NCBI GenBank assembly: GCA_031364845.1
Contig: JANLWX010000028.1
Location: 5,346 to 69,345 of the forward strand
Reading direction: 5' to 3'
Source: Candidatus Eiseniibacteriota bacterium
GTDB taxonomy: Bacteria > Eisenbacteria > RBG-16-71-46
DNA: 64,000 bases
Shown: positions 1,996 to 25,364 of the stretch, in pieces
Numbering within the stretch: position 1 is the first letter of the stretch
How the letters are laid out: the number at the start of each line of letters is the position of its first letter
Notes under the pieces: generated by a model
The model's input: only the letters and a program-made list of their open reading frames with translations
Told to the model about the DNA's origin: nothing
Database searches by the model: none
Program-made: the position numbers and the translations under genes

Positions 1996-2072
1996 TCGAG
2001 TCGCGGCGGTGCGGGCCCGTGGGGTCCGCACCCGCCGCATCGACACATCCCACCAAGACCCATACGAGCGCG

Positions 2073-4808: not shown

Positions 4809-4810
4809 CG

Positions 4811-9204: not shown

Positions 9205-10788
9205 ATGAAACGGCACATACTGTTCCTGAGCGCGCTGCTGATGCTCGGGGCATCGAGCGCGAACGCGATCACCACCGAAGCGCTGTTGGACTCGGTCCAG
9301 CACGCCTCGTTCCGGTACTGCTGGTATCAAGCCAATCCCGCCAATGGTCTGGTCCGCGACCGCAGCCAGTCGGGCTCCCCGGCGAGCACCGCGGCGGTCG
9401 GCTTCGCCCTTTCTGCGATCACGGTTGGAATCGATCACGAGTGGATCACGCGTGAGCAGGGACGCGACCGGGTGAGGACCACGCTCGAGACGCTGTGGAG
9501 CAAGCCGCAAGGCACCGGCGTGAGCGGATTCATCGGGTACAAGGGTCTGTTCTATCACTGGCTCGACATGAACACCGCGCTGAGGATGTGGAACTCGGAA
9601 GTATCCACGATCGACACCGGGCTCCTGTTCGCGGGCATCCTGCAGGCGCGTGAATACTTCACGGGCACCGACACGACGGAGACCCGGATCCGCGCGCTCG
9701 CCGATTCGATCACCTATCGAGCGGACTGGAAGTTCATGCAGAACTCGGGTTCTCCGCTCAAGCATGGGTGGACTCCGGAATCGGGATTCATCGTCTACAA
9801 CTGGACGGGCTACAACGAAGCCATGGTCATGTACGTCATTGCCATGGGATCGCCGACTCATCCGCCCACCAACGGCAGTCCCTGGACGAGTTGGACCAGC
9901 ACCTACTCGTGGCAGACCCACTACGGCCAGTCGTACGTGAACTTCCCGCCGCTGTTCGGCCACCAGTATTCGCACTGCTGGATCGACTTCCGCTACATCA
10001 ACGACGCGTACATGACGAATCGCGGCATCACGTACTTCGAGAACTCGCGCCGCGCCACGCTCGCCCAGCGTTCGTACGCGATCGCGAACCCGAACTTCAA
10101 GATCGGCTACAGCGACAGCCTGTGGGGGCTGACCGCGAGCGACGGCCCCGGCAACTCCTACAACGCGCGCGGCGCGCCGCCCGCGCAGAACGACGATGGA
10201 ACCATCACGCCGACGGCACCGCTGAGTTCGATACCCTTCGCGCCCGAAGCCACGATCCCGGTGATGCACAAGCTGTGGAACACCTATAAGACGCAGTTGT
10301 GGGGGCCTTACGGTTTCCGCGACGCGATGAGTCTCCAGGCGAACCCCGACTGGTTCGACCCCGACTATCTCGGCATCGATCAGGGGCCGATCGTGCTCAT
10401 GATCGAGAACTACCGCAACGGCTCGGTGTGGAATCGCTTCATGCTCAACCCGCAGGTGAAGGCGGGTCTTGCGGCGGCGGGATTCACGCGCACGGTGACC
10501 GGCGTCGAGCAGCCGCTGTTCGACGGCGCGGTCGAGTTGCTCGCGAACGAACCCAATCCGTTCCACGACGCGACCACGCTGCGATTCCGTCTCGGCCGTG
10601 AGAGTCACGTGCGCCTGACGGTGTTCGATGTGGGCGGGCGCGAGGTCGCGCGGGTCGCCGATCGCGTGTTCCCGGCGGGACTCCATCGGGTTCCGCTCGA
10701 AGGCGCGCGCCTGGGCAGCGGCATCTATTACACACGTCTCGAAGGTCAGGGCCGGACCGATGTCCGGAGAATCGTGTTGCTCCACTAG
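9205..10788 (+). CDS. GH144-like (DUF3131/glycoamylase-like) endo-beta-1,2-glucanase candidate with a T9SS type-A CTD
   Basis: Signal MKRHILFLSALLMLGASSANA. 'FRYCWYQANPANGLVRD', 'GFIGYKGLFYHWLDMNT', 'FGHQYSHCWIDFRYINDAYMT', 'FENSRRATLAQRSYAI' and 'YLGIDQGPIVLMIENYRNG' are typical of the GH144/DUF3131 family. C-terminus 'EPNPFHDATTLRF.L......L.VFDVGGREV...........G......G.YYTRL' is CTD-like. Confidence 0.8.
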   Translation: MKRHILFLSALLMLGASSANAITTEALLDSVQHASFRYCWYQANPANGLVRDRSQSGSPASTAAVGFALSAITVGIDHEWITREQGRDRVRTTLETLWSKPQGTGVSGFIGYKGLFYHWLDMNTALRMWNSEVSTIDTGLLFAGILQAREYFTGTDTTETRIRALADSITYRADWKFMQNSGSPLKHGWTPESGFIVYNWTGYNEAMVMYVIAMGSPTHPPTNGSPWTSWTSTYSWQTHYGQSYVNFPPLFGHQYSHCWIDFRYINDAYMTNRGITYFENSRRATLAQRSYAIANPNFKIGYSDSLWGLTASDGPGNSYNARGAPPAQNDDGTITPTAPLSSIPFAPEATIPVMHKLWNTYKTQLWGPYGFRDAMSLQANPDWFDPDYLGIDQGPIVLMIENYRNGSVWNRFMLNPQVKAGLAAAGFTRTVTGVEQPLFDGAVELLANEPNPFHDATTLRFRLGRESHVRLTVFDVGGREVARVADRVFPAGLHRVPLEGARLGSGIYYTRLEGQGRTDVRRIVLLH

Positions 10789-10841
10789 TGTCCGCGGGCC
10801 GCGGCGCGCGAGAACGTTCGAAGAGAGGACAAGGCCGACGC

Positions 10842-13800
10842 ATGCCAAAGATCGAGGCGGCGACCACGCTGCCTCGCGAGGACAACACGACCTCGCGGGG
10901 CAGTCTCGTCGTTTCGCCCGGTGCGATCCTCTCCAACGGGCGGCTCTCGGTTGCGATCACCGGACGCGGCACCGGTTTCACTTCTCACGGCGGGTCCCTG
11001 CTCACGCGCTGGGCCGGCGATCCGGTCGAGGACCGCGACGGCAGCTTCGTCTATCTGCGTGACCTCGACTCGCGTGAGGTGTGGACTGCGGGTACCGAGC
11101 CGCTAGCCGGTGTTCCCGACGCCTACGAATCCACGTGGCGCCCCGGCGTGTTCACGATCGAGCGGCGCGACCACGGCATCGAGACGAAGCTCGAAGTCGC
11201 CGTGATGCCGGACGCCGATGCCGAGGTGCGGCGCGTCACGTTGCGCAATCGCTCGCGTCGCGCGCGGCGCATCGAGATCACGAGCTTCGCGCCGGTCGTG
11301 ATTCACGACGCCGCGGCTGACGCCTCGCATCCGGCGTTCTCACGGTTGTTCGTCCAGACCGAATTCGACTCCTCAACGCGCGCGCTGGTCGTGTCCCGGC
11401 GGCCGCGGCATCCGGACGAGCAGCATCCGTGGCTGGTACACGTGATGACCGGCGCGGGCCGGCTCGAGCACGAAACCGACCGCGACCGCTTCATCGGCCG
11501 CGGCGGCACCACGGCAGCACCGCGCGCGCTTTCGTCGCGCGGGCGGCTTTCGGGAACCACCGGCAACGTGCTCGACCCGATCGTGAGCCTGCGGCGGGTC
11601 GTGAAGCTCGAGCCCGGCGGGATCGCGCACGTGTTCTTTGGGCTGGGTGCGGCGTTCGATCGCGAAGCCGCGCTGGAACTGGCGCGCGTGGTGCAGCGCG
11701 ACGCGGATGCGGCGTTCGACCTCGCGGAGCACGCGGAGGTTGCCCGGCTGGCACTCGCGGGCGTGACGCCCGCACTCGAAGAACGCCGGCAGGCGCTCGC
11801 GGTCGCGACGTTGTACGGGCGGTTCGTGGAATCCGTTGCCGGTAGGGTGGCGGCGGGCACGAAGCCCGTGTCCATCACCGATCAACTCCATGCGGCCGGG
11901 ACCGCGACCCCGTCGCCGAGCGTGAATCGCGTCCGCATCGCCGCGCACGCCACCGCGCACCACAACGGCGTCGCGCGGCTCCCCGCGCAGCGCTCCTCAC
12001 GCGCGACCTCGCGGCGGCGCACCGCGACGCCCGAGCCGCTCCAGTTCTGGAACGGCTACGGCGGGTTTTCGGCCGAAGGCACCGAGTATGTCATCCGACT
12101 CGCCCACCATAAGGAGCTTGGTCTCTCGCTGCCGCCGGCACCGTGGGTCAACGTGCTCGCGAACGAGAGCTTCGGTGCGCTCGTGAGCGAGACCGGCGCG
12201 GGATGCACGTGGAGCCGCAACAGCCGGGAGCATCGCCTGACGACGTGGTCCAACGACCCGCTGCTCGATCCGCACGGCGAGGCGCTCTACCTGCGCGACG
12301 AAGCGAGCGGCGAGTCGTGGTCGCCGCTGCCCGGTCCGCGACCCGCGGCCGCCGATTACGAAATGCGCCACGGTTTCGGCGTGAGCCGCTGCACCCATTC
12401 GAGCCACGGGCTCGAACAGGTGACCGAGATCTTCGTGCCTGCGCGCGAGCCGGTGAAGATCGTGCGCCTGCGGATCACGAATGCATCGGCGGCCCCGAGG
12501 CGCCTCGCGGTGTTCTCGTATCAACGGCTGGTGCTGGGATCGGACACCCGCGATCACGCGCGCACGGTGGAAGTCGAGCAGGACCGTGACTCAGGAATTC
12601 TGCTCGCGCGCAATCCCGCGTCGGGACCCTACGCCGGGGGCATCGCGTTCTCCACGGTCGTCGCATCCGGCGGCGTTTCTGCTTCGCACGTCACGCGCAA
12701 TCGCGAGGCGTTCCTCGGAGTGAACGGCAATCCGTCCGACCCCAGAGCGCTCCACGGTGGCACGCTTCGCGATGTTCCGGCCGGCGGCGATCCGTGTTTC
12801 GCGCGGCAGATCGTGATCGAGATCGCGCCGTCGGCGGTGTTCGAATGCGCGTTCCTGCTCGGCGAGACGATGGATCTGTCGAGCGTGCGCGAACTCGTCG
12901 AGCGCCTGGGCACCGGGGGTGCGATCGAAGCCGCGCTGCTCGCAACCCGCGAAGTGTGGGCCGAGCGCGTCTCGGCGGTCGCGATCCGCACGCCGCGCCC
13001 GGCGATCGATCTGATGGTGAACGGCTGGCTCGCCTACCAGACGCTCGCGTGCCGGCTGTGGGGGCGCACCGCGTTCTACCAGTCGGGCGGAGCGCTCGGG
13101 TTCCGCGACCAGCTCCAGGACGCGGCGTCGCTGCTCATGTGGTCGCCCGGTATTTTGCGCGAGCAGATCCTGACGCACGCCAGCCACCAGTTCGTGGAAG
13201 GCGACGTGCTCCACTGGTGGCACCCGCCCGATGCGCGCGGGATTCGCACGCGCTTCGCCGACGATTTGCTGTGGCTGCCGTGGCTCACCGCCGGATATGT
13301 CACGGCCACCGGCGATGCGGCGGTATTGGACGAGCAGACGCGCTATGTCACTGCCCGCGCACTCGAGGACGGCGAGGACGAAGCATTTCTCGTCCCCGAG
13401 GATTCCGGTGAGAGCGGTGATGTCTACGAGCACTGCTGCCGGGCGATCGACCGATCGCTCGCGACCGGTATCCACGGCCTGCCGCTGTTCGGCACCGGTG
13501 ACTGGAACGACGGCATGAATCGCGTGGGCCGCGAAGGCCGCGGCGAAAGCGTGTGGATGGGCTTCTTCCTCTACACCGTGCTTGGCGAGTTCCTCGCGCT
13601 GTGCGAACGGCGCGCCGACCGCGCGCGGATCGAGCGCTATGTCGCGCATCGTGAACATCTGAAGACCGCGCTCAACGATGCCGGATGGGACGGCGGCTGG
13701 TACCGGCGCGGCTACTACGACGACGGCACCGCGCTCGGCACGAAGGACGGCGACGAGTGCCGCATCGACGCGCTGGCTCAGGCGTGGGCGGTGTTGTCGG

Positions 13801-14483
13801 GCGCGGCACCGAAGGCGCGCGCCCGGCGCGCGATCGACGCGGTGGAGCAACGCCTCGTGAGCGAGCGCCAGCAGTTGATCAAGCTGCTCGATCCGCCGTT
13901 CGAGCACACGCCGCACGATCCCGGCTACATCAAGGGTTACGTGCCCGGCGTGCGCGAGAACGGCGGGCAGTACACGCATGCCGCGCTGTGGGTGGTGCGG
14001 GCGGTCGCCGAACTCGGACGTAACGATCGCGCGGCAGCCCTGCTCGAGATGCTGAGTCCGGTCCGTCACACGCGCACGCGCGCGCAGGCGGATCAGTATC
14101 GTGTGGAGCCGTACGTGATCGCCGCCGACGTGTACGGCGCGGCACCTCACGTCGGACGGGGAGGCTGGACGTGGTACACGGGATCGGCGGGATGGATGCT
14201 GCGGGTCACGCTGGAGTCGGTGCTCGGCGTGAGGCTCGAACAGGGAAGGACGCTCACGATCGCGCCGTGCGTTCCCGATCAGTGGCCGGGCTTCGACGTG
14301 CGCTGGACGGTGCCGGGCGAGTCGACGGTCTACGAGATCGTGGTGCGGAATCCGAAGCGCCGCGCGCGGCGGGTGGTGACGGCCAAGGTGGACGGACAGC
14401 GCGCGGCAGTCGTCCGCGGCGTGGCACGGATTGCGATCGAACACGATCAACGCGCCCATCGCATCGACGTGGTGCTGGGTTGA
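10842..14483 (+). CDS. GH94 glycoside phosphorylase (1,2-beta-oligoglucan phosphorylase / cellobiose-phosphorylase superfamily)
   Basis: ORF 10788-14483, ATG at 10842 (MPKIEAATT). Catalytic-domain motifs 'GWLAYQTLACRLWGRTAFYQSGGALGFRDQLQDAASL', 'GDVLHWWHPPDARGIRTRFADDLLWLPW' and 'GTGDWNDGMNRVGREGRGESVWMGFF' are GH94-like. Confidence 0.8.
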   Translation: MPKIEAATTLPREDNTTSRGSLVVSPGAILSNGRLSVAITGRGTGFTSHGGSLLTRWAGDPVEDRDGSFVYLRDLDSREVWTAGTEPLAGVPDAYESTWRPGVFTIERRDHGIETKLEVAVMPDADAEVRRVTLRNRSRRARRIEITSFAPVVIHDAAADASHPAFSRLFVQTEFDSSTRALVVSRRPRHPDEQHPWLVHVMTGAGRLEHETDRDRFIGRGGTTAAPRALSSRGRLSGTTGNVLDPIVSLRRVVKLEPGGIAHVFFGLGAAFDREAALELARVVQRDADAAFDLAEHAEVARLALAGVTPALEERRQALAVATLYGRFVESVAGRVAAGTKPVSITDQLHAAGTATPSPSVNRVRIAAHATAHHNGVARLPAQRSSRATSRRRTATPEPLQFWNGYGGFSAEGTEYVIRLAHHKELGLSLPPAPWVNVLANESFGALVSETGAGCTWSRNSREHRLTTWSNDPLLDPHGEALYLRDEASGESWSPLPGPRPAAADYEMRHGFGVSRCTHSSHGLEQVTEIFVPAREPVKIVRLRITNASAAPRRLAVFSYQRLVLGSDTRDHARTVEVEQDRDSGILLARNPASGPYAGGIAFSTVVASGGVSASHVTRNREAFLGVNGNPSDPRALHGGTLRDVPAGGDPCFARQIVIEIAPSAVFECAFLLGETMDLSSVRELVERLGTGGAIEAALLATREVWAERVSAVAIRTPRPAIDLMVNGWLAYQTLACRLWGRTAFYQSGGALGFRDQLQDAASLLMWSPGILREQILTHASHQFVEGDVLHWWHPPDARGIRTRFADDLLWLPWLTAGYVTATGDAAVLDEQTRYVTARALEDGEDEAFLVPEDSGESGDVYEHCCRAIDRSLATGIHGLPLFGTGDWNDGMNRVGREGRGESVWMGFFLYTVLGEFLALCERRADRARIERYVAHREHLKTALNDAGWDGGWYRRGYYDDGTALGTKDGDECRIDALAQAWAVLSGAAPKARARRAIDAVEQRLVSERQQLIKLLDPPFEHTPHDPGYIKGYVPGVRENGGQYTHAALWVVRAVAELGRNDRAAALLEMLSPVRHTRTRAQADQYRVEPYVIAADVYGAAPHVGRGGWTWYTGSAGWMLRVTLESVLGVRLEQGRTLTIAPCVPDQWPGFDVRWTVPGESTVYEIVVRNPKRRARRVVTAKVDGQRAAVVRGVARIAIEHDQRAHRIDVVLG

Positions 14484-15934
14484 GATCGATCGTCACGCGG
14501 CCGGCGTGGGTACTGCTCGCGCTGTTCGCGATCGCGACGGCGTCGTGCTCGTCGACCGCAACGCGAGCCGTCGCAACCGCGACCGCACCGCGCCACTCGG
14601 CGCGCGAAACCGCGTTCCTCGACACGCTCGAACACCGCACGTTCCGGTTCTTCTGGGAGCAGAGCGACTCGGTGACCGGCATGGCGCCCGATCGCTGGCC
14701 GACGCGCTCGTTCGTGAGCGTGGGTGCGGTCGGCTTCGCGCTCACCGCGTACCCGATCGGTGCCGAGCGCGGCTGGGTGCCGCGTGCGGCGGCGGTCGAA
14801 CGCACGGCGCGCACGTTGCGCTGGTTCTGGGCCGCGCGCCAGGACACCGCCGCCCAGGGTGCGACCGGCTATCGCGGGTTCTACTACCACTTCCTGCACC
14901 CGACCACCGGCACACGCTTCGAGACGGTCGAACTGTCGACCATGGACACGGCACTGCTGCTCGCGGGGGCGCTGTTCTGCCAGTCGTATTTCGATCGCCC
15001 CGGGCCCGCCGAAGCCGAAGTGCGCGCGCTCGCCGATTCGATCTACCGCCGCGTCGACTGGCGCTGGGCGCAGGTGCGTCCGCCCACGATCGCGCTCGGA
15101 TGGAATCCCGAAGGCGGACACCTGCCGTACGACTGGCGCGGCTACAACGAGACGATGCTGCTGCACATCCTCGCACTCGGATCGCCGACGCACCCGGTCG
15201 GGCCCGACACGTGGCGCTCATACACCAGCGCCTATCGTTTCGGCACCTACCAGGGACAGGAGCATCTCGGTTTCGCGCCGCTGTTCGGACATCAGTACTC
15301 GCACGTGTGGATCGACTTCCGCGGCATCCGCGACAGCGTGATGCGGGCGCACGATCTCGACTACTTCGAGAACTCGCGGCGCGCCACACTCGCGCAGCGC
15401 GCGTACGCGATCGAAAATCCTTCGGGCTGGGCCGGTTATGGCGCGAATCTGTGGGGGCTCACCGCGTGCGATGGTCCGGTCGAGAAGGCGATGACGATCG
15501 ACGGGCGCGCGCGGCAGTTCCACACCTACTGGGCGCGCGGCGCGTCGTTCACCGAGGTGAACGACGACGGAACGCTGTCGCCGACCGCGGCGGGCGGATC
15601 GATTCCGTTCGCGCCCGAGATCGCGATCCCCGCGCTGATGACGATGCGCGAGCGCTTCGGCGCCCACGTGTTCGGCGAGTACGGATTCGTCGACGCGTTC
15701 AACCCCACGCTGCGCGAGGCGATCCCCGTGCAGCACGGCCGCGTCGTGCCGGATGTGGGCTGGTTCGACACCGATTACCTCGGCATCGATCAGGGACCGA
15801 TCCTCGCGATGGCCGAGAATCATCGCACGCAGCTGGTGTGGCGCACACTGCGGAAGAATCCGCACATCGTGCGCGGCCTGCGCGCGGCGGGCTTCACCGG
15901 CGGCTGGCTCGACGGAGCGCCGGTCGCGCGATGA
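14480..15934 (+). CDS. GH144-like (DUF3131) lipoprotein, second paralog
   Basis: Frame of ORF 14171-15934. The only sensible start is TTG 14480 (overlaps the GH94 stop as TTGA), giving MRSIVTRPAWVLLALFAIATASC (lipobox TASC). Shares the 'FGHQYSHVWIDFRGIRD', 'FENSRRATLAQRAYAI' and 'YLGIDQGPILAMAENHR' blocks with 9205-10788. Confidence 0.75.
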   Translation: MRSIVTRPAWVLLALFAIATASCSSTATRAVATATAPRHSARETAFLDTLEHRTFRFFWEQSDSVTGMAPDRWPTRSFVSVGAVGFALTAYPIGAERGWVPRAAAVERTARTLRWFWAARQDTAAQGATGYRGFYYHFLHPTTGTRFETVELSTMDTALLLAGALFCQSYFDRPGPAEAEVRALADSIYRRVDWRWAQVRPPTIALGWNPEGGHLPYDWRGYNETMLLHILALGSPTHPVGPDTWRSYTSAYRFGTYQGQEHLGFAPLFGHQYSHVWIDFRGIRDSVMRAHDLDYFENSRRATLAQRAYAIENPSGWAGYGANLWGLTACDGPVEKAMTIDGRARQFHTYWARGASFTEVNDDGTLSPTAAGGSIPFAPEIAIPALMTMRERFGAHVFGEYGFVDAFNPTLREAIPVQHGRVVPDVGWFDTDYLGIDQGPILAMAENHRTQLVWRTLRKNPHIVRGLRAAGFTGGWLDGAPVAR

Positions 15935-17223
15935 ACTCGCGCCTCAGGGATCTGTGCCTCGCCGCACTGCTCGCCCTCTCCGCCGCCGGCTGCAGCACGG
16001 CGCGCAGCGGCGAGCCGGTCACGCTCCGGTTCTGGGCGATGGGCCGCGAGGGTGAGGTCGTCGAGGAGCTGGTGCGCGACTTCGAGCGCGAGCAGCCCGG
16101 CATTCGCGTCGAGGTGCAGCAAATTCCGTGGGGTGCCGCGCATGAAAAGCTGCTCACATCCCATGTCGGCAACTCCACACCCGACGCGGGGCAGCTCGGC
16201 AACACGTGGATCTCCGAGTTCGTCGCGCTGCGGGCGATCGAGCCGCTCGCCGAATGGGTGCGCGGTTCGGCGGCGGTTCCCGAGAGCGCCTACTTCGCGG
16301 GCATCTGGGACACCAACGTCATCGACGGCACCGCGTACGGGATTCCGTGGTACGTGGACACGCGTCTGCTGTTCTATCGCAAGGACCTGCTCGCGCGCGC
16401 CGGCTACGCCTCGATGCCCGAGACGTGGGACGAGTGGCGCCGCGCGATGGAGGCCGTGAAGAAGCTCGGCGTCGGCCCTTACGCGATCTTCCTGCCGACC
16501 AACGAATACACGCCGTGGATCATCTTCGGCCTCCAGACCGGATCGGCGCTGCTCGCCGAGGACGGCACCCGCGGCGCGTTCTCGTCACCCGAGTACCGCC
16601 GCGCGATGGCGTTCACCATGGACCTGTTCGATCGCGGGCTCGCACCCAAGGTGCCCGGCGCTTCGATCGCCAATCTCTATCAGGAGTTCGAGCGCGGCAC
16701 GTTCGCCATGTACATCTCGGGGCCGTGGCAGCTCGGCGAATTCGCACGCCGCCTGCCGCCGGAAATGCAGTCGGCGTGGGACGTCGCACCGTTGCCCGGC
16801 CCCGATGGGCCCGGCGCCTCGGTCGCCGGCGGATCGAGCCTCGTGATGTTCCGCGGCTCCAGGCACAAGGCCGAAGCGTGGAAGCTGATCGAGTTCCTCT
16901 CGCGCCCCGAGCAGCAGGTGCGTTTCTTCCGGCTCACCGGCGACCTGCCGGCGCGTGTCGAAGCGTGGCGCGACACGGCACTCACCAACGACCGCCGCCT
17001 CGGCGCGTTCGAACGGCAACTGCGCCACGCAGTGTCGACGCCCAAGGTGCCGGAGTGGGAGCAGATCTCGGTCAAGCTCCAGGACCGCGTGGAATCGGTG
17101 GTGCTCGGCGGCACGCTTCCAGACTCGGCACTCGCCGCGCTCGACCGCGACGTCGACCGCATGCTCGAGAAGCGCCGCTGGCTCATGTCGCGGCGCCACG
17201 CCGCCGCCGCGGGGACGCGATGA
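15931..17223 (+). CDS. ABC transporter extracellular sugar-binding lipoprotein (family 1 SBP)
   Basis: ATG 15931 overlaps the upstream stop (ATGA). MNSRLRDLCLAALLALSAAGC lipobox. 'LRFWAMGREGEVVEELVRDFEREQPGIRVEVQQIPWGAAHEKLL' and 'GIPWYVDTRLLFYRKDLL' are typical of oligosaccharide SBPs. Confidence 0.85.
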   Translation: MNSRLRDLCLAALLALSAAGCSTARSGEPVTLRFWAMGREGEVVEELVRDFEREQPGIRVEVQQIPWGAAHEKLLTSHVGNSTPDAGQLGNTWISEFVALRAIEPLAEWVRGSAAVPESAYFAGIWDTNVIDGTAYGIPWYVDTRLLFYRKDLLARAGYASMPETWDEWRRAMEAVKKLGVGPYAIFLPTNEYTPWIIFGLQTGSALLAEDGTRGAFSSPEYRRAMAFTMDLFDRGLAPKVPGASIANLYQEFERGTFAMYISGPWQLGEFARRLPPEMQSAWDVAPLPGPDGPGASVAGGSSLVMFRGSRHKAEAWKLIEFLSRPEQQVRFFRLTGDLPARVEAWRDTALTNDRRLGAFERQLRHAVSTPKVPEWEQISVKLQDRVESVVLGGTLPDSALAALDRDVDRMLEKRRWLMSRRHAAAAGTR

Positions 17224-18119
17224 GTTCCGCCCAGCTCCCCAGCCGCACCCAGTCGCGCGCCGCGTGGTGGTTCCTTGCCCCCGCACTCGGGCTGATCACG
17301 GTGTTCTTCGCGGTGCCGGTCGTGATCGGCCTGTTCCTGAGCCTCACCGACTTCGATCTCTATGCGATCGGCGATCTGTCGAGCGTGCGCTTCCTCGGGC
17401 TCGGCAACTACGGGCAGGTGCTCGCGAATCCGCTGTTCTGGAAGGCGCTCGGCAACACGTTCTTCTACGTGATCGTCGGCGGACCGCTGTCGGTGGTCGC
17501 CTCGCTCGTGGCGGCGCTGCTCGTGAGCTCGCGCCTCGCGCGCTTCCAGGGCTTCTTCCGCTCGGTGTTCTTCGTGCCGGTCGTCACCACGCTGGTCGCG
17601 GTGTCGATCGTGTGGCGCTACCTCTACCATCCGCAGTACGGCCTGATCGACGGACTGCTGCGCGCGATCGGCATCGCGCCGATCGACTGGCTCGGCGATC
17701 CGCACTACGCGATGCCCGCGATCATCGTGCTCGCGGTGTGGAAGAACTTCGGCTACAACATGCTGATCTTCGTCGCCGGCCTGCAGAGCATCCCGGACGA
17801 TCTCTACGAAGCCGCTCGCCTCGACGGCGCCGGCGCGTGGCAGCAGTTCCGCCACATCACGGTGCCGGGACTCGGGCCCACGTTCCTGTTCGTCGGCGTG
17901 ATGACGATGCTCGGCCACTTCCAGTTGTTCTCCGAACCCTACGTGATGACGCAGGGTGGCCCGCTCAAGAGCACGCTGAGCGTGGTGCTGCTCATGTACG
18001 AGGAAGGGTTCCGCTGGTGGCGCATGGGTCTCGCCGCCGCGATCGCGTTCGTGCTGTTCGTGATCATGCTGATCGGAACCATGATCCAGATGCGCCTGCA
18101 GCGTTCGAGGGCCGCATGA
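17220..18119 (+). CDS. ABC sugar transporter permease (MalF/UgpA-like)
   Basis: ATGA overlap at 17220. Six TM segments and an EAA loop 'IPDDLYEAARLDGAGAWQQFRHITVP'. Confidence 0.9.
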   Translation: MSSAQLPSRTQSRAAWWFLAPALGLITVFFAVPVVIGLFLSLTDFDLYAIGDLSSVRFLGLGNYGQVLANPLFWKALGNTFFYVIVGGPLSVVASLVAALLVSSRLARFQGFFRSVFFVPVVTTLVAVSIVWRYLYHPQYGLIDGLLRAIGIAPIDWLGDPHYAMPAIIVLAVWKNFGYNMLIFVAGLQSIPDDLYEAARLDGAGAWQQFRHITVPGLGPTFLFVGVMTMLGHFQLFSEPYVMTQGGPLKSTLSVVLLMYEEGFRWWRMGLAAAIAFVLFVIMLIGTMIQMRLQRSRAA

Positions 18120-18937
18120 AGCGCGCGATGCCGTCCCTGTTCGTCCACGTCGCGCTGGTGATCGGCGCGCTGCTCACGATGACGCCGCTGCTGTGGATGG
18201 TGTCGGCGTCGTTCATGCCGCCGGGCGAGGCGAACACGTTTCCGCCGCGGCTGTTCCCGAGCGTCGCGACCCCCGAGCACTACGTCGCGCTGTTCACGCG
18301 GCTCAACTTGGCGCGCACGCTGATGAACAGCATGATCGTCGCGATCGGCGCGACCGCGATCTCGGTGCTCGTCAACGGGCTCGCGGGCTATGCGTTCGCC
18401 AAGCTGCATTTCGGCGCCCGCGACCGGCTGTTCCGGATCCTGCTCGCGGCACTCGTGATCCCCGGGCAGGTCGGCATGCTGCCTCTGTTCCTGATGCTCC
18501 AGAAGATGGGGCTCGTGAACACGCTGTGGGGCGTGATGATTCCCGGCCTCGCGAGCATCTTCGGAATCTTCATGGTGCGCCAGTACGCGACCAGCATCCC
18601 CGACGAGCTGCTCGACGCGGCGCGCGTCGACGGCGCGAGCGAGTTCCGGATCTACTGGACGATCGTGATGCCGCTGCTGCGCCCGATCCTCGTGACCCTG
18701 GCCGCGTTCACGTTCCTCTCGATGTGGAACGACTTCATGTGGCCGCTGATCATCCTGAGCGACGAGCGCAAGTACACGCTGCCGGTGGCGCTCGCGAATC
18801 TCGTGGGCGAACACGTGCAGGACACCGAGCTCATGATGGCGGGCTCGATGCTGACGGTGCTGCCGGTGCTGATCGTGTTCCTGGTGCTCCAGCGCTGGTA
18901 TCTGCGCGGCGTGATGATGGGGGCGGTCAAGGGATGA
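18116..18937 (+). CDS. ABC sugar transporter permease (MalG/UgpE-like)
   Basis: ATGA overlap at 18116. 'IPDELLDAARVDGASEFRIYWTIVMPLLRP' EAA motif. Confidence 0.9.
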   Translation: MKRAMPSLFVHVALVIGALLTMTPLLWMVSASFMPPGEANTFPPRLFPSVATPEHYVALFTRLNLARTLMNSMIVAIGATAISVLVNGLAGYAFAKLHFGARDRLFRILLAALVIPGQVGMLPLFLMLQKMGLVNTLWGVMIPGLASIFGIFMVRQYATSIPDELLDAARVDGASEFRIYWTIVMPLLRPILVTLAAFTFLSMWNDFMWPLIILSDERKYTLPVALANLVGEHVQDTELMMAGSMLTVLPVLIVFLVLQRWYLRGVMMGAVKG

Positions 18938-21900
18938 ACGCTTGGACTGCGGCCGGCACCGCCGGCCTGTGCAATCGACGCAGGCCGGGGCCGGGCGTCA
19001 GCGCGTCGTTCTTGGCGTTCGTGCTCGTGTCCGTGATCGGAGTTGCAGCCCACGCAGCGCCTCCGGCGCCGCGTGTACATCTGGATGCGTTCGATGACGT
19101 CTCCGCGTGGAGTGCGGTGCCCGCGAGCGGCGTTCAACTGCGGATCGGCTCCGACGCCGGAACCCACGGCCGCGCGATGCGGCTCGATTTCGATTTCGGC
19201 GGGGGCGGCGGCTACGCGGTCGCGCGCCGCGCGATCGCGATCGATCTACCCGCGAACTACCGCTTCCGTTTCGCGGTGCGCGGCGACTGCAAGCCCAACG
19301 ACCTCGAGTTCAAGCTGATCGACGCGAGCGGCGACAACGTGTGGTGGAACAACCGCCGCAACTTCGTGTTCCCGGCCCAGTGGGAAACGCTCACCACGCG
19401 CAAACGCCAGATCGGCTTCGCGTGGGGGCCGAGCAACGCCGAGCTGCGCCACGTCGCGGCGATCGAGATCGCGATCACCGCCGGCAGCGGAGGCAAGGGT
19501 ACGGTGTGGCTCGACGAGTTCACGCTGGAGCCGCTTCCCGTGGCGAGTGCCACTCCGCCGGCGGTTGCGGCCCGCGCATCGTCATCGCGTCCGCGCTCGC
19601 CGGCCGCCGCGGCGGTGGATCGCGACTCCGCGAGCGTGTGGGCGAGCGATGCCGGCGACAGCCGCCCGTGGCTTGCGCTCGATCTGGGAGGAGAGCGCGA
19701 ATTCGGCGGGCTTGTGATCGACTGGGCCGACGGGCGCCATGCGACGGACTACGACGTGGAGGTTTCGGGCGACGGCACCGCATGGCGGCCGCTTCGCGCG
19801 GTGCGCGGCGCCAACGGCGGGCGCGATCACCTGTACCTGCCCGAGTCCGAAGCGCGCGCCCTCCGCGTGCGCGCGACGCGCGCCGTCGCCGCGCGTGGCA
19901 TCGCGATCCGGTCGATCACGGTCGAGCCCCTCGAGTGGTCGGCATCGCTCGGACACTTCTACGAGACGCTGGCCGCGGAAGCGCCGCACGGCAGCTATCC
20001 GCGCGGGCTGTTGCAGGAGCAATCCTATTGGGCGGTGCTCGGCACGGATCGCGGTGAAGTCGAGGAGGCGATGCTGGGCGAAGACGGCATGCTCGAGACG
20101 GGCAAAGCGCAGTACTCGATCGAGCCGTTCCTGCGCGTCAACGATTCGCTCGTGACGTGGGCCGACGTCCAAGCCAGCCACCGCCTCGCGGAAGGCGATC
20201 TGCCGATTCCGACCGTGACGTGGCGTCGCGGCGAGACGGAGTTGTCGGTGACGGCGTTCGCGTTCGACCCGCTGGACGAAACTCCGGCGGCGCTCGCGGG
20301 CCTTGCGCGCAACGGTCTCGGCGTGCTCGCGCGCTACCGCGTGACCCATCAGGGCCAGCGTCCCGCGCGTATCACGCTCTATCTCGCGCTGCGCCCGTTC
20401 CAGGTGAATCCGCTGTCCCAGTTCCTCAACACCGCGGGCGGTGTCGCCACGATCCGAACGCTCGCGCGCGAAGGTGCGGTGGTGCGCGTGAATGGCGATC
20501 GCGGGATCGTCTCCCTCACGCCGCCCGCGCGCTTCGGGGCGGCGGCGTTCGATCACGGCGACATCGTCGAGTTCCTGCGCCGGGGCGGCGTGCCCGCGCG
20601 CGACAGCGTGTCCGATCCCTTTGAGCACGCGTCGGGCGCGCTCGAATACGTGTTCGACATTCCCGCCGGCGGCACGCGCGAAGTGGACGTGTTCATTCCG
20701 TTGCGCGGACGGCCTTCGGCGCCCGCGGTCGTGCCCACGCCCGCGATGGTCGCGCAGGCCGAGGCGGCGAGCGTGAAGCGCTGGGCCGCTCATCGCCGCG
20801 GAATCACGATCGAGGTTCCGCAGGCGGGGGCCGAGGAGATCCGCGCGATGCGCGCGCAACTCGGATGGATCCTGATCAACCGCGACGGTGCGGCGATCCA
20901 GCCGGGATCGCGCTCGTACGAGCGCTCGTGGATCCGCGACGGCTCGCTCACCTCGACCGCACTGCTGCGGCTCGGCCATCCCGAGGTCGTGCGCGAGTTC
21001 ATCACCTGGTTCGCGGGGCATCTCTATCCCGACGGCAAGGTGCCGTGCTGCGTCGATGCGCGCGGCGCCGATCCCGTGCCCGAGCACGACAGCCACGGCG
21101 AGTTCATCTACCTCGTCGCCGAGTACTACCGCTACACCGGCGATCGCGCGCTGATCGAGCAGCAGTGGCCGGCGATCGCGCGCGCGGTCGCGCACATGGA
21201 TTCGCTGCGCCAGACGCGGCGCACCGCGGAATGGCGGGTACCCGCGAAGCGCGAGTTCTTCGGCCTGCTGCCGCCTTCGATCAGCCACGAAGGCTACTCG
21301 GCGAAACCGATGCACTCCTACTGGGACGATTTCTTCGCCCTGCGCGGATTCAAGGACGCGGCGTGGCTGGCGGGAGTGCTCGGACGCCGGTCGCAGCAGA
21401 TCGCGTTCACCGCGATGCGCGATCAGTTCCAGCGCGAACTCGGTGCCTCGATCAAGGCGGCAATGGCGCGCCATCGCATCGACTACATCCCGGGCTGTGC
21501 CGACCTTGGCGACTTCGACGCGACCTCGACCACGATCGCGCTCGCGCCGGCATCCGCCGAAGCGGCGCTGCCGCCGGGGGCACTGGCGCGCACGTTCGAG
21601 AAGTACTGGGAATTCTTCCGCGAGCGGCGCGTGAGCACGACATGGGACGCGTACACACCTTACGAAACGCGCGTCATCGGCAGCATGGTGCGGCTAGGCT
21701 GGCGCGAGCGCGCCGATTCGCTGGCGACCTGGTTCCTGCGTGACCGGCGTCCGCTCGGTTGGCAGCAGTGGGCCGAAGTGGTCGATCGCGAACCGCGCCA
21801 CGTGCGCTTCATCGGCGACATGCCGCATACGTGGGTCGGCTCCGACTTCGTGCGTTCGGTGCTCGACCGCTTTGCCTATGAGCGTGAAGGCGACAGCACG

Positions 21901-22191
21901 CTCGTGATCGGCGCCGGCATTCCGCTCGCATGGACGAAGGACTCCGGCGTGAACGTGAAGGGCCTTCCGACGCCGCACGGGCCGCTGGGTTTCACGATGC
22001 GCGCGCACGGGGACTCGATGGTGGTGACGATCGATGCCGGCGTGCGGGTTCCGCGCGGTGGAATTCTGCTGCGCCCGCCTGCGGCGGGTGCGCCCATGAG
22101 TGCGAGCGTGAACGGCGCCGCGGTGCGTCCGAGCCCTGCAGGGCTCTTGATCCGCAAGCTCCCCGCGCGCGTGGTCATTCGCAGCCGCTGA
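18934..22191 (+). CDS. Large secreted enzyme: two F5/8-type-C (discoidin)-like carbohydrate-binding domains plus a C-terminal (alpha/alpha)6 six-hairpin glycosidase-like domain
   Basis: ATGA overlap at 18934. Signal 'SASFLAFVLVSVIGVAAHA'. Discoidin-like blocks '...GTVWLDEFTLEPL' and 'WLALDLGGEREFGGLVIDWADGRHATDYDVEVSGDGTAWRPL'. The C-terminal half ('SRSYERSWIRDGSLTSTALLRLGHPEVVREFITWFAGHLYPDGKVPCCVD', 'GEFIYLVAEYYRYTGD') resembles GH15/GH63/debranching-type toroid folds. No family could be assigned by eye. Confidence 0.7.
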   Translation: MNAWTAAGTAGLCNRRRPGPGVSASFLAFVLVSVIGVAAHAAPPAPRVHLDAFDDVSAWSAVPASGVQLRIGSDAGTHGRAMRLDFDFGGGGGYAVARRAIAIDLPANYRFRFAVRGDCKPNDLEFKLIDASGDNVWWNNRRNFVFPAQWETLTTRKRQIGFAWGPSNAELRHVAAIEIAITAGSGGKGTVWLDEFTLEPLPVASATPPAVAARASSSRPRSPAAAAVDRDSASVWASDAGDSRPWLALDLGGEREFGGLVIDWADGRHATDYDVEVSGDGTAWRPLRAVRGANGGRDHLYLPESEARALRVRATRAVAARGIAIRSITVEPLEWSASLGHFYETLAAEAPHGSYPRGLLQEQSYWAVLGTDRGEVEEAMLGEDGMLETGKAQYSIEPFLRVNDSLVTWADVQASHRLAEGDLPIPTVTWRRGETELSVTAFAFDPLDETPAALAGLARNGLGVLARYRVTHQGQRPARITLYLALRPFQVNPLSQFLNTAGGVATIRTLAREGAVVRVNGDRGIVSLTPPARFGAAAFDHGDIVEFLRRGGVPARDSVSDPFEHASGALEYVFDIPAGGTREVDVFIPLRGRPSAPAVVPTPAMVAQAEAASVKRWAAHRRGITIEVPQAGAEEIRAMRAQLGWILINRDGAAIQPGSRSYERSWIRDGSLTSTALLRLGHPEVVREFITWFAGHLYPDGKVPCCVDARGADPVPEHDSHGEFIYLVAEYYRYTGDRALIEQQWPAIARAVAHMDSLRQTRRTAEWRVPAKREFFGLLPPSISHEGYSAKPMHSYWDDFFALRGFKDAAWLAGVLGRRSQQIAFTAMRDQFQRELGASIKAAMARHRIDYIPGCADLGDFDATSTTIALAPASAEAALPPGALARTFEKYWEFFRERRVSTTWDAYTPYETRVIGSMVRLGWRERADSLATWFLRDRRPLGWQQWAEVVDREPRHVRFIGDMPHTWVGSDFVRSVLDRFAYEREGDSTLVIGAGIPLAWTKDSGVNVKGLPTPHGPLGFTMRAHGDSMVVTIDAGVRVPRGGILLRPPAAGAPMSASVNGAAVRPSPAGLLIRKLPARVVIRSR

Positions 22192-22195
22192 GTTT

Positions 22196-23590
22196 CTAAC
22201 TGCCGAAAACGGCCCCGGAACCATCCGCCAGCACCGCGCCGTTCGTTCGGATCACCTCGCGGTAATATTCGGCACTCGCCTTCATCGTCCGCGCCTGCGT
22301 CGCCGGATCCACGTGCAGGAGTCCGAAGGTGATGGCGTAGCCGCTCGCCCATTCGAAATTGTCGAGCAGCGACCACGCGAAATAGCCACGCACATCGACG
22401 CCGCGGCGGATCGCCTCGAGTGTCGCGAGCAGGTGTTCGCGGTAATACGACACGCGCTGCGCGTCATCGATGCGGCCGTCTGCCGTCGGCGAGGGATCGT
22501 CGAACGCGCCACCGTTCTCGGTGATGTAGAGCGGGATGTCGCCGTAGCGCTCCTTCACCCAGCACAGCGCGCGCGTGAGGCTCTCGGCGTGCACTTCCCA
22601 GCCGGTCTGCATGTGGCCGGGACCTTCCGTTCTCACCTTGGCCGCGCGCATCGGCCACGTGGCGTCGTCGTGCTTCATGATGCTGCGCGTGTAGTAGTTG
22701 ATCCCGAGGAAGTCGATCGGCTGTCGGATCAAGGCGAAGTCTTCGGCCGGGAACTCGACCCACGCATCGCCGTAGATTTCACGCATGCCGTCGGGCGCGC
22801 GGCCGAGCATCGGGGGATCGAGATACTGCTGGTTCATGTACACATCGGCGCGGGTCGTCGCGGCGAGGTCTTCGGCGCTCTCCGAGGCTGCATCCTTCGG
22901 CTCGAGGTTCACGACCAGGCCGATCTTCTGTTTGCCGATGCCGCGGTAGCGCTGGACCGCGGCACCATGTGCGCGCATCAGGTGGTGCGCGGCGATCGGC
23001 GCTTCGTAGAGGTTGCGATGGCCGGGCGCGTTCACGCCGTAGAGATATCCGCCGTCGACCACCACCCACGGCTCGTTGAGTGTCGCCCACATCGGCACGC
23101 GGTCGCCGAGCGCGCGGAAGCAGACCTCGGCGTAGTCGGCGAACCAGTGCGCGATGTCGGGGTTGAGCCACCCGCCGCGATCGTCGAGTGCCACCGGCAG
23201 GTCCCAATGGAACAGCGTCACGCACGGTTCGATGCCGCGCGTGAGCAACTGGTCGACGAGTCGCGAATAGAAGTCGATGCCCTTGGCGTTCACGCGCCCA
23301 AGTCCTTCGGGAAGGATGCGCGCCCACGCGAGGCTGAAGCGGTAGGAATCGAGTCCGAGCCGCGCCATCCATTCGACGTCCTCGGCGAAGCGGCGGTAGT
23401 GATCGCACGCGAGGTCACCGGTGTCGCCGCCTTTGACGCGCCCGGGTGTGTGCGAGAAGCGGTGCCAGATGTTCATTCCCGCACCGTCGGCGAGCGGTGA
23501 GCCTTCGATCTGGTAGGCGGAGGTCGCAGCGCCCCACAGGAACTTCTCGGGGAATGATGTCGCGCCTCCGGCGGTCGGATTCATCGTCAT
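22196..23590 (-). CDS. GH1 beta-glucosidase
   Basis: ORF 22196-23896 on the minus strand; the R-rich N-terminal extension was rejected. Start at MTMNPTAGGATSFPEKFLWGAATSAYQIEG (GH1 N-terminal signature). 'TLNEPW' acid/base and 'YITENG' nucleophile motifs are present. Confidence 0.9.
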   Translation of the reverse strand: MTMNPTAGGATSFPEKFLWGAATSAYQIEGSPLADGAGMNIWHRFSHTPGRVKGGDTGDLACDHYRRFAEDVEWMARLGLDSYRFSLAWARILPEGLGRVNAKGIDFYSRLVDQLLTRGIEPCVTLFHWDLPVALDDRGGWLNPDIAHWFADYAEVCFRALGDRVPMWATLNEPWVVVDGGYLYGVNAPGHRNLYEAPIAAHHLMRAHGAAVQRYRGIGKQKIGLVVNLEPKDAASESAEDLAATTRADVYMNQQYLDPPMLGRAPDGMREIYGDAWVEFPAEDFALIRQPIDFLGINYYTRSIMKHDDATWPMRAAKVRTEGPGHMQTGWEVHAESLTRALCWVKERYGDIPLYITENGGAFDDPSPTADGRIDDAQRVSYYREHLLATLEAIRRGVDVRGYFAWSLLDNFEWASGYAITFGLLHVDPATQARTMKASAEYYREVIRTNGAVLADGSGAVFGS

Positions 23591-23675: not shown

Positions 23676-25364
23676 TCACGGAGTGCCGCCGCCCGGCGTC
23701 GGCGGCAGCGCCATCGCCTGGGCCCGCAGCGCGCGGGCTTCGAAGAAATCGGGGTCGAGCGCGATCGCGCGGTCGACGAGCGTGATCGCGCGTGATGGAT
23801 CGCCGAGCTTGAGCGCGGCGCGGGCAGCGTTCTTGTAGAGGTAGGCCTCGCCCGGAAACGCGCGGATGCCGCGTTCGAGCACCTGCAGCGCTTCACTGGC
23901 CTGGCCGTTGTCGATCAGAGCGACGCCGAGGTTGTTGTAGACATTCGCCTGCGAGGAGTCGAGCGAGATCGACGTCCGCAGACTCGTGACTGCGGCCGGA
24001 TAGACGCGCTGCGAAAGCTGCACCGAAGCCAGATTGTAGTAGGCGCTCGCCGTGAGCTTCGGGTCTTTCGGGTTGTGCCGGATCACTGCGCGATAGAGCG
24101 ACTCCGCGGAGGGGTAGAGACTGTCCGCTTCGTAGAGCCGCCCGAGCCCGGTCAGAGCGCCCGCCTGCGTGGGGTCGAGCACCAGCGCCTGCTGGAACAG
24201 TGCGCGCGCTGCCGCGAGATCGCCCTGTTCCTGCCTCTGAACCGCCTGACTCTGGATCGCGACCGCCTCGGTCTGCTTGCGCGCGGTCTCCGCGCGACGC
24301 TTGGAGGCCGCCGGGCCGTTGAAGATCACGAACATCGAGGCGCCGATCGCGACGGCCGGGCCCGCGAAAAAGAGCCAGCGCTTCGAGCGTGAATCACGCG
24401 AGGCGGCGGTTGCAGTCGGCGTGGCAGACGGCATCGCGGCGGTACGCATAGCGGAGGTTCCCGCCGCGGGTATCACCGCCGTGCGCACTGCCGACGTCGC
24501 GGCGACACTCGCGCCCGCGACACCCGGCTCGAACGCCATGCCGCTTGCGCTCGGGGGTGCGACGCCGGTCATCGCGCTCAACTCGCGCGCTGCGGTCGCG
24601 GCGTCCATGCGCTGCGCGGGATCCTTGGCCAACAGCGCTGCCACGATCGTCTCGACCGCTTCGGGGACGTCGCCGCGCGTTTCCGAAAGCGGCGACGGAT
24701 CTTCGTTCGCGATCGCGAACATCACCGCCATCGCGTTGTCGCCGGGATAGGCACGGCGCCCCGCGAGCATTTCGTAGAGCACGAGCCCGAGCGCGAACAC
24801 GTCGCCTTCGGGGCCGCTCTGACCGCGGATCGCTTCGGGCGCCATGTAGGCCGGCGTGCCGAGGCTGGTGCCGGTCACCGTGAGCTTCGACGCCATGGTC
24901 GCGCGCGCGAGACCGAAGTCCATGATCTTGATCGTGCCGTGCTCGTCGAACATCAAGTTCTCGGGCTTGATGTCGCGATGGCTGGTGCCGCGGCGATGTG
25001 CGTAGCCCAGTGCCGCCGCGACGTCGCGCGCGATCGCGAGCGCGTCGGCAACGGGCAGCGCGCCGTGGTCGATGCGGTCGCGCAGGCTCGAGCCGGTCAG
25101 CAGCTCCATCGCGATGAACGGACGGTCGGCTTCCTGCTCGAACGCGTAGACGGTCGCGATGTGGGGGTGGTTGAGCTCGGCAGCCGACAGCGCCTCGCGC
25201 TCGAAGCGGGTGAGTGCGTCCGCGTCCATGGCGAGTTCGGGAGACAGGAACTTGAGCGCGACGCGGCGGCGCAGCTTGAGGTCCAAGGCTTCGTAGACCT
25301 CACCCATGCCGCCGCGGCCGATCCGGCGCACGATCTCGAAGTGTGAGACTCGGGTGGGCTCCAT
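23676..25364 (-). CDS. Ser/Thr protein kinase with a low-complexity linker, one TM segment and C-terminal TPR repeats
   Basis: Start at MEPTRVSHFEIVRRIGRGGMGEVYEA (glycine loop), 'ALK', 'HRDIKPENLM', 'DFG', 'APE'. TM 'WLFFAGPAVAIGASMFVIFNG'. TPR-like C-terminal end. Confidence 0.85.
   Translation of the reverse strand: MEPTRVSHFEIVRRIGRGGMGEVYEALDLKLRRRVALKFLSPELAMDADALTRFEREALSAAELNHPHIATVYAFEQEADRPFIAMELLTGSSLRDRIDHGALPVADALAIARDVAAALGYAHRRGTSHRDIKPENLMFDEHGTIKIMDFGLARATMASKLTVTGTSLGTPAYMAPEAIRGQSGPEGDVFALGLVLYEMLAGRRAYPGDNAMAVMFAIANEDPSPLSETRGDVPEAVETIVAALLAKDPAQRMDAATAARELSAMTGVAPPSASGMAFEPGVAGASVAATSAVRTAVIPAAGTSAMRTAAMPSATPTATAASRDSRSKRWLFFAGPAVAIGASMFVIFNGPAASKRRAETARKQTEAVAIQSQAVQRQEQGDLAAARALFQQALVLDPTQAGALTGLGRLYEADSLYPSAESLYRAVIRHNPKDPKLTASAYYNLASVQLSQRVYPAAVTSLRTSISLDSSQANVYNNLGVALIDNGQASEALQVLERGIRAFPGEAYLYKNAARAALKLGDPSRAITLVDRAIALDPDFFEARALRAQAMALPPTPGGGTP

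Follow-up and report, generated by a model that had tools for sequence, protein, structure and literature searches.

In a 64,000-nucleotide stretch of DNA from Candidatus Eiseniibacteriota bacterium (GenBank assembly GCA_031364845.1, contig JANLWX010000028.1, positions 5,346 to 69,345 of the forward strand; hereinafter the window, numbered from its first letter), a seven-gene operon (9205-22191; Table 1) ends in a gene for a 1085-residue protein, hereinafter the target. The target appears to be an enzyme of a known kind, i.e., a six-hairpin glycosidase in a polysaccharide-utilization operon, which represents an undescribed family within a pathway that is being actively mapped. Its companions are two enzymes of the glycoside hydrolase (GH) family GH144, a GH94 phosphorylase, a solute-binding protein (SBP) and two permeases of an ATP-binding cassette (ABC) transporter. 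As stated in the original prediction, an earlier reading of the bare DNA, a convergent GH1 gene follows, ending 4 nt downstream of the target. The seven genes are chained by start/stop overlaps of 1-4 nt (TAGTG, TTGA and then ATGA four times). The two GH144 paralogs are targeted differently, one by a C-terminal sorting domain of the type IX secretion system (T9SS) and the other by a lipobox, while the GH94 enzyme finds its best PDB match in the phosphorylase domain of cyclic β-1,2-glucan synthase (E=2e-246) and the SBP is a homolog of the sophoro-oligosaccharide binder Lin1841. No gene for an ABC ATPase lies within the operon, a scan for promoters and terminators upstream of it found nothing and an Rfam scan of the window gave no matches. 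The operon agrees with the β-1,2-glucan clusters that the Nakajima group has described (PMC8861115; PMC12369401), and the published repertoire of β-1,2-glucan enzymes holds nothing like the target (PMC11842490).

The open reading frame (ORF) for the target is a genuine gene. Retranslation reproduced exactly the coordinates and length first proposed, sequence searches recover 2335 homologs at E≤1e-3 with the best being 86% identical, and the GC content at the third codon position (0.85) is similar to that of the neighboring genes. The ATG start shares the sequence ATGA with the TGA stop of the upstream permease, in keeping with the translational coupling to the transporter that had been predicted. 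Read by eye, the N-terminus (MNAW...RRRPGPGVSASFLAFVLVSVIGVAAHA, followed by APPAP) shows the pattern of a Sec-type signal peptide, with a basic stretch, a hydrophobic core and the cleavage site AHA↓AP. The same kind of inspection places a signal-like N-terminus just ahead of a conserved VDxFE strand in all but four of 37 aligned homologs, and these four (P0053, P0065, P0094 and P0107) appear truncated or begin at an alternative codon. The target protein is probably secreted, as had been thought, and periplasmic. Export via the T9SS was considered and rejected, there being no Pfam match to Por_Secre_tail, unlike in the first GH144 enzyme of the operon.

A full-length AlphaFold2 (AF2) model built on the 37 homologs has a mean predicted local distance difference test score (pLDDT) of 90.1 and a predicted template modeling score (pTM) of 0.88; a model of the barrel alone reached a pLDDT of 84.6. 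The full-length model displays six parts after the signal peptide, namely a jelly-roll, a discoidin domain, a β-sandwich, a helical linker, an (α/α)6 barrel and a C-terminal β-sandwich. The model, together with the Foldseek comparisons presented below, bears out the C-terminal (α/α)6 domain of the original prediction, from whose architecture the two β-sandwiches flanking the barrel (the first of about 250 residues) had been absent. Of the two discoidin modules it had proposed only one stands: PF00754 matches residues 213-325 as a single module (E=9e-16; 58.6 bits against a cut-off of 28.2), and the nearest solved relatives are carbohydrate-binding modules of family 32 (CBM32) from a Paenibacillus glucanase/chitosanase (profile E=2e-13). 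For the first module, the discoidin assignment was rejected because no hidden Markov model (HMM) supports it, the only signals being weak ones of the CBM11, CBM70 and CBM4_9 type. In the target CBM_11 (PF03425) scores 17.2 bits and does not reach its cut-off of 27, weak CBM_11 matches to this domain occur in 7/18 members (best Pfam E=2.7e-5), and the PDB profile matches are to CBM70 (E=0.014) and CBM11 (E=0.2). The β-sandwich ahead of the barrel has no Pfam match, and full-length Foldseek alignments of the target to GH94, GH15 and GH116 structures span 800-1100 columns.

Table 1. Features of the window and of the target protein.
Feature	Nucleotides	Strand	Target residues	Basis or motif
TonB-dependent receptor, upstream of the operon	2019..4808			
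Operon gene 1: GH144-type (PF10091) β-1,2-glucanase homolog with signal peptide and C-terminal T9SS sorting domain	9205..10788	+		Pfam E=1e-77; Por_Secre_tail weak
GH94 phosphorylase with a pair of supersandwich domains, presumed cytoplasmic (no obvious signal peptide)	10788..14483	+		Pfam, PDB
Second GH144-type enzyme, lipoprotein (lipobox ATAS↓C)	14480..15934	+		Pfam E=2.5e-81; TTG start overlaps GH94 stop
Solute-binding lipoprotein, homolog of Lin1841	15931..17223	+		Pfam; PDB 3uor E=9e-130, Lin1841 E=4.8e-70
ABC permease	17220..18119	+		Pfam BPD_transp_1; 4-nt overlap with neighbor
ABC permease	18116..18937	+		Pfam BPD_transp_1; 4-nt overlap with neighbor
Target gene (1085 aa), which ends the operon	18934..22191	+	1-1085	ORF translation, homologs, AF2 model
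Signal peptide, predicted cleavage after AHA	18934..19068	+	1-45	Read from sequence; AF2 pLDDT <50 for aa 1-40
Domain 1, all-β jelly-roll, weakly CBM11-like	19069..19545	+	46-204	DSSP, Pfam, PDB profile
Domain 2, F5/8 type C (discoidin, CBM32)	19567..19926	+	212-331	PF00754, PDB profile
β-sandwich ahead of the barrel, as in GH15/GH94/GH116/GH78	19951..20703	+	340-590	DSSP, Foldseek
Helical linker (helices 603-621 and 630-648)	20740..20877	+	603-648	AF2 model
(α/α)6 barrel, presumed catalytic domain	20881..21873	+	650-980	AF2 models, Foldseek, conservation, weak six-hairpin matches
Conserved cluster 1			P657-D669	QPGSRSYxRSWIRDG
Conserved cluster 2			G701-D719	GKVPCCVDxRGxDPVPEHD
Conserved cluster 3			L779-D799	LPPSISHEGYSAKPMHSYWDD
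Conserved cluster 4			G854-T866	GCADLGDFDATST
Conserved cluster 5			W904-R913	
Conserved cluster 6			W946-W967	WAEVV...GDxPHTW
C-terminal β-sandwich	21874..22188	+	981-1085	DSSP; hhalign to GH94 C-terminal domain
Convergent GH1 β-glucosidase, no signal peptide, cytoplasmic	22196..23590	-		Pfam E=7e-154, PDB

The catalytic half of the target is not placed in a described family by Pfam, NCBIfam or PDB sequence searches. The PDB sequences were searched with the whole protein, a full-length profile and a profile of the catalytic half, and for this half none of the three gave anything better than MmpH at E=0.008. Bac_rhamnosid6H (PF17389, the six-hairpin domain of GH78) scores 19.8 bits, below its gathering cut-off of 24.5, GDE_C is faint, and the GH15-type NCBIfam model TIGR01577 makes a partial match to residues 661-755 (E=3.8e-6) that lies far under the family cut-off. 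Among the 37 homologs, Pfam finds Bac_rhamnosid6H in 33 (best E=5.7e-8), Glyco_hydro_15 in 13 (best E=0.016) and GDE_C in 12; since all three are six-hairpin glycosidase families, we read these matches as a superfamily-level signal. The catalytic and supersandwich models of GH94 match neither the target nor the 37 homologs, and PF10091 (GH144) has no match in the target. GH195, met in the literature searches, concerns sulfated mannan. The original prediction had likewise found no GH family in which to place the protein, and with regard to the two families it had named as potential spoilers, GH63 and GH78, no HMM match in the target goes beyond the sub-threshold Bac_rhamnosid6H. The AlphaFold modeling it had recommended returned a six-hairpin barrel with Foldseek neighbors at 8-16% identity.

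Searched against the PDB with Foldseek, the full-length model recovers GH94 phosphorylases (1e-16), followed by the GH15 dextran dextrinase/glucodextranase, GH116, GH78 and GH52, at 8-13% identity. The barrel-only model recovers GH78 best (1.4e-10), followed by GH116, MmpH, GH95, GH125, GH94, GH15, GH63 and GH133. Every one of these neighbors is a glycosidase or glycoside phosphorylase of the β-sandwich plus (α/α)6 class. Profile-profile comparison with hhalign gave a probability of 39.7% against the GH94 catalytic profile (E=3e-4, 372 columns), 1.4% against GH144 (up to 61 sequences, 41 columns) and 0.3% against a 23-sequence GH15 profile (E=0.19, 22 columns), on which statistical ground membership in GH15 was rejected, with PF00723 also being only faint. 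The target belongs to the β-sandwich plus six-hairpin fold class, sharing it with GH78, GH94, GH15 and GH116, lies in none of the families compared, and has a barrel that appears unrelated to that of the β-1,2-glucanase clan. No characterized member was found in the literature searched or among solved structures. The target is a well-supported candidate for founding, or belonging to, an undescribed glycoside hydrolase family of the six-hairpin superfamily, one tied to β-1,2-glucan catabolism.

These comparisons bear on two rival readings of the target. That it is a divergent GH78-type α-L-rhamnosidase, or some other unrelated exo-glycosidase, and a mere passenger of the operon, we regard as very improbable. 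The barrel matches to GH78 (TM about 0.6), the weak but widespread Bac_rhamnosid6H signal, one homolog so named by JGI and a local RG-DPV-xH match to a Bacteroides GH78 enzyme speak for it. However, in the target that signal remains below the Pfam cut-off, the other GH78 models (Bac_rhamnosid_N, Bac_rhamnosid and Bac_rhamnosid_C) match none of the 37 members at E≤1, and identity to GH78 structures is 11-16%. Moreover, the presumed position of the GH78 acid (about residue 663, placed by offset from short PDB alignments and not by a tool alignment) is occupied variously by E, A, S, D or R among the homologs, and the gene neighborhoods are exclusively related to β-1,2-glucan, with no rhamnose genes. 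Slightly less improbable, though still improbable, is a non-hydrolytic GH94-like chemistry, with the target acting as a phosphorylase or transglycosylase on sophoro-oligosaccharides. GH94 phosphorylases are its best full-length structural matches and GH94 is the sole family with a near-full-length profile alignment; several Arg and His residues are conserved at barrel positions; a sister subfamily (see below) is cytoplasmic; and transglycosylases, the GH35 enzyme IaSGT for one, are known to go unnoticed in β-1,2-glucan clusters (PMC8861115). Against this, it would be unusual for phosphorylases to be exported like the target and its subfamily, the GH94 DWND motif and Pfam match are missing, and the operon already codes for a bona fide GH94.

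In the 37-sequence alignment, the residues that are invariant or ≥90% conserved sit in, or at the ends of, six segments between successive barrel helices (clusters 1-6 in Table 1), which we take, by analogy with other (α/α)6 glycosidases, to form the catalytic face. Ten acidic residues reach this level of conservation (D669, E717, D719, E786, D798, D799, D860, D862, E948 and D962), and all ten, as opposed to D713 and E911, are also kept in a 33%-identical homolog from Methylosinus. Equally conserved is Y662-x3-W666-x-R668-D669, whose spacing equals that of GH15 region 1, Y-x3-W-x-R-D, numbered Y48-x3-W52-x-R54-D55 in the Aspergillus glucoamylase; the GH15 motif is seen as DYF(F/Y)xWxRDS, and the one alignment that brings it into register with the target is a single-sequence hhalign without significance. 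In the target family, W797-D798-D799 and E948 are conserved, and two hhalign runs, neither of them significant, disagree on which loop corresponds to the GH15 WEE motif. In hhalign, the loop of GH94 bearing DWND, presumably its catalytic motif (a W488F mutant entry among the structural matches agrees with this), aligns to the invariant LLPPSISHEG...YWDD loop of the target, where no DWND motif is found. The general acid of GH94, GH65 and GH15 is located on the DWND-equivalent loop. By analogy with these three families, the target might catalyze a single-displacement (inverting) reaction, for which our best guess would be that E786, D798 or D799, on the loop leading into the sixth barrel helix, serves as general acid and that E948 or D962, on the final loop between helices, serves as base.

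This pattern of conservation also speaks to the idea that the target is a non-catalytic glycan binder or scaffold, capturing β-1,2-glucan on behalf of the transporter. While its two N-terminal modules of carbohydrate-binding type and its translational coupling to the ABC permeases would suit such a role, the barrel is the most conserved part of the protein and presents about ten conserved acidic residues in its inter-helix segments. Further, the barrel and β-sandwich are retained in the cytoplasmic subfamily that lacks domain 1, and the operon already has a dedicated binding protein; hence, we give this idea very little credence.

The family is large. The catalytic-half profile retrieves 3236 representatives (50% identity clusters) at E≤1e-3 and 987 at E≤1e-30, with the best 150 of the 3236 all being true family members, and a scan of one genome per species yielded at least 599 confirmed homologs out of at least 600 pattern matches. 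Carriers among the matches listed belong to Gemmatimonadota, Eisenbacteria, Krumholzibacteria, Acidobacteriota, Binatia, Kryptoniota and Proteobacteria, and cultured ones include Steroidobacter flavus and Duganella sp. 1224. To assess conservation of the neighborhood, the window proteins were compared by tblastn with 80 loci from species-representative genomes, supplemented by gene-called contigs, each count being taken over the loci with enough flank. A same-strand permease lies directly upstream of the target in 62 of 67 loci, the order SBP-permease-permease-target recurs in 52 of 57 across many phyla, a GH144 gene occurs within 10 kb upstream in 47 of 52, and a GH94 or GH1 gene is found nearby in 32 of 36 (GH1 alone in 25 of 36). 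The conserved order, the Lin1841-like SBP and the GH94 akin to cyclic glucan synthase uphold the link to β-1,2-glucan metabolism made in the original prediction and make it far stronger than a single operon would.

The association of the target with β-1,2-glucan genes survives the loss of the transporter and of GH144. A Croceibacterium plasmid shows the order TonB-dependent receptor-GH3-TonB-dependent receptor-GH144-target, with a 4-nt overlap between the last two genes and no ABC system, and a metagenome-assembled genome of Binatia has a target and GH94 pair amid housekeeping genes with no GH144. In Xanthomonas sacchari, genes for LacI, a TonB-dependent receptor, GH144, an SBP and two permeases precede a frameshifted target homolog. 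A sister subfamily in Hyphomicrobiales, comprising proteins of 957 residues that are 31-33% identical to the target, is devoid of the signal peptide and domain 1. It adjoins a 1,2-β-oligoglucan phosphorylase (SOGP) of the LpSOGP type in three of five loci examined, with GH3 nearby in two of those three, and gene calls in the flanks shown for the three include no GH144-type gene.

Several observations on individual loci and members may be added. The X. sacchari R1 homolog (NZ_CP010410.1; locus L086, 8829-11854) is broken up among three reading frames and has no gene entry, being either a pseudogene or an assembly error; the plasmid-labeled record also carries edd, pgl, glk and zwf. The sister-subfamily loci L085 (4960-11418) and L089/L090 (5647-16118) have an SbmA/BacA-like ABC transporter close by, along with GH15 in L085 (Methylosinus) and GH3 in L089 and L090, and the subfamily could serve a cytoplasmic route for imported β-1,2-glucan. 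In locus L001, a GH35 gene (17266-19635) lies near the target, as in the IaSGT cluster of Ignavibacterium album. One family representative, P0218 (1292 aa), has a C-terminal dienelactone-hydrolase/esterase-type domain at about residues 1160-1290, which could hint at acylated (e.g., succinylated) glucan substrates or be a gene-call fusion. P0121 (1868 aa) combines partial and complete family copies in tandem, with two discoidin and two barrel matches, and may reflect duplication or misassembly. Within the window, the TonB-dependent receptor gene overlaps via ATGA a plus-strand ORF for 1098 residues (4805-8101; GC at the third codon position 0.82, as in coding DNA) with a signal-peptide-like N-terminus and no Pfam match, whose product could bind glycans at the cell surface as a partner of the receptor within the same system; a weakly PorV-like ORF (7990-9129) comes after it. 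Directly upstream of the GH1 gene, on the minus strand, is a Ser/Thr kinase with tetratricopeptide repeats (23676-25394); this pairing of GH1 and kinase is found again in locus L003 (60% identical) and may be a regulatory coupling.

Taking the neighborhoods, the domain architecture and the model together, we propose, with a probability of about one half, that the target is a secreted glycoside hydrolase dedicated to β-1,2-glucan catabolism, which acts on the glucan or its fragments before import by the ABC transporter. The T9SS-secreted and lipoprotein GH144 enzymes would cut the glucan; the target, anchored to the glycan through its pair of N-terminal binding modules, would hydrolyze glucosidic bonds in the glucan or its fragments, possibly including long or cyclic chains, and the resulting sophoro-oligosaccharides would be passed by the Lin1841-like binding protein to the permeases; finally, the cytoplasmic GH94 phosphorylase and GH1 β-glucosidase would complete the breakdown. 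The first and last of these steps follow the model of Kobayashi et al. for the Ignavibacterium cluster (PMC8861115). The loci lacking GH144 favor a true β-1,2 activity, perhaps with ring opening included, because SOGP and β-glucosidases require a free chain end.

Several observations weigh against this proposal. The names seen for homologs ("discoidin domain-containing protein", "F5/8 type C domain" or "hypothetical protein") include none that is functional. A few homologs reach significant matches to the GH78 six-hairpin model. No structure of the β-1,2-glucanase clan is among the best 50 Foldseek matches of either model, and many of the barrel neighbors (GH78, GH15, GH95, GH125, GH63, GH133 and MmpH) cleave α-linked sugars. 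The mapping by eye of the WDD motif to the GH15 WEE motif is contradicted by the hhalign with the GH15 profile, which, itself insignificant, selects another loop of the target, making the residue assignment insecure. Finally, most loci carry two GH144 enzymes with GH94 and GH1 or GH3; since these suffice for pure β-1,2 chains, an extra conserved enzyme hints at a different bond, and the bond cleaved could be other than β-1,2.

Accordingly, we also consider that the target might be a specialist for an odd linkage, cutting a non-β-1,2 bond of natural β-1,2-glucans and thereby making fragments that GH144, SOGP and β-glucosidases can degrade. We hold this to be a minority possibility, albeit a serious one. 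Its best candidate bond is the lone α-1,6 linkage through which glucans of the Xanthomonas, Ralstonia and Cereibacter type are cyclized; β-1,6 branches, as in periplasmic glucans of the E. coli type, are less likely. The GH144 endo-glucanase CpSGL and the β-glucosidase BtBGL together leave a "non-degradable glucopentaose" from α-1,6-cyclized β-1,2-glucans (bioRxiv 10.1101/2025.04.21.649730), implying an enzymatic step missing from the known repertoire (PMC11842490), and the β-1,2 enzymes in the loci are already sufficient. Other pointers are the many inverting α-glycosidases among the barrel neighbors, the GH15-type NCBIfam match, the motif spaced like GH15 region 1 and the homolog in the GH144 cluster of Xanthomonas, a genus that makes α-1,6-cyclized glucans. 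A specific form of this idea, to which we assign a marginally lower and still tentative weight, is that the target is the missing hydrolase of the α-1,6 ring-closing linkage, or of the resistant glucopentaose, using a GH15-like inverting site in a new family; it would explain why loci with a complete β-1,2 machinery always carry an extra enzyme. However, the GH15 profile comparison is insignificant, so the motif match could be due to chance or barrel pseudo-symmetry, and the gene is near-universal in the loci, even where SOGP is the only nearby partner, which better fits a core β-1,2 role. As for the β-1,6 variant, BtBGL alone strips the side chains (bioRxiv 10.1101/2025.04.21.649730).

β-1,2-glucans are periplasmic or secreted glucans of bacteria with roles in symbiosis, virulence and osmoregulation, their α-1,6-cyclized forms being virulence factors of Xanthomonas and related bacteria, and the enzymes degrading them have been found family by family since 2014. 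The target family is large, spans many phyla and lies almost always in a β-1,2-glucan operon, yet has no functional name and no solved structure. Were it to be a new GH family, it would lengthen by one step the accepted pathway, which runs through GH144, ABC import, SOGP and β-glucosidase, and might furnish a tool enzyme to analyze or make β-1,2-glucans. Were it to open α-1,6-closed rings, it would fill the documented gap of the non-degradable pentasaccharide and be usable against a Xanthomonas virulence factor. The orthologs in the cultured Steroidobacter flavus, Duganella sp. 1224 and Croceibacterium sp. make the question directly testable.

Comparison with known enzymes sets the target apart from each of its neighbors. 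The clan GH-S (GH144, GH162, GH189 and GH192-194; Nakajima et al. 2025, PMC12102758), with a conserved Glu/Phe/Tyr triad (E239, F286 and Y367 in XcSGL), shares with it the operons, the presumed substrate, (α/α)6 barrels and secretion, but GH144 has no detectable homology to it (see the hhalign value above), and the clan members are described as single barrels without a preceding β-sandwich, except for the multi-domain PgSGL4 (PMC12102758). The GH78 enzymes (Dictyoglomus 6i60, Aspergillus Rha-2 8iwf and SaRha78A 3w5m; Foldseek E=1e-10 to 1e-8, TM about 0.6) resemble it in having a barrel with a C-terminal β-sandwich, in being multi-domain with β-domains on both sides of the barrel and in the weak Pfam six-hairpin matches of most members, whereas the target lacks their three other domain models and any rhamnose gene context. 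The retaining β-glycosidases of GH116 and GH52 (TxGH116, a β-glucosidase, and ExoMA2; E=1e-15 to 1e-12) have the same two-domain fold class, but their identity to the target is about 12% and there is no other Pfam glycosidase match. GH15 (glucoamylase, glucodextranase, dextran dextrinase and isomaltose glucohydrolase; E=1e-15 to 1e-11) shares the bacterial β-sandwich plus barrel arrangement and the identically spaced YxxxWxRD motif, while the profile comparison is insignificant and the WEE acid motif is not unambiguously matched. GH94, represented by SOGP and the phosphorylase domain of cyclic β-1,2-glucan synthase, is the best full-length structural match (E=1e-16), with the same order of β-sandwich, helical linker, (α/α)6 barrel and C-terminal β-domain and a place in the same metabolic pathway. 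The target differs from it in its identity of 10-12%, in having no GH94 Pfam match or DWND motif and in being secreted; this secretion, along with conserved carboxylates where a base could be, makes hydrolysis likelier than phosphorolysis.

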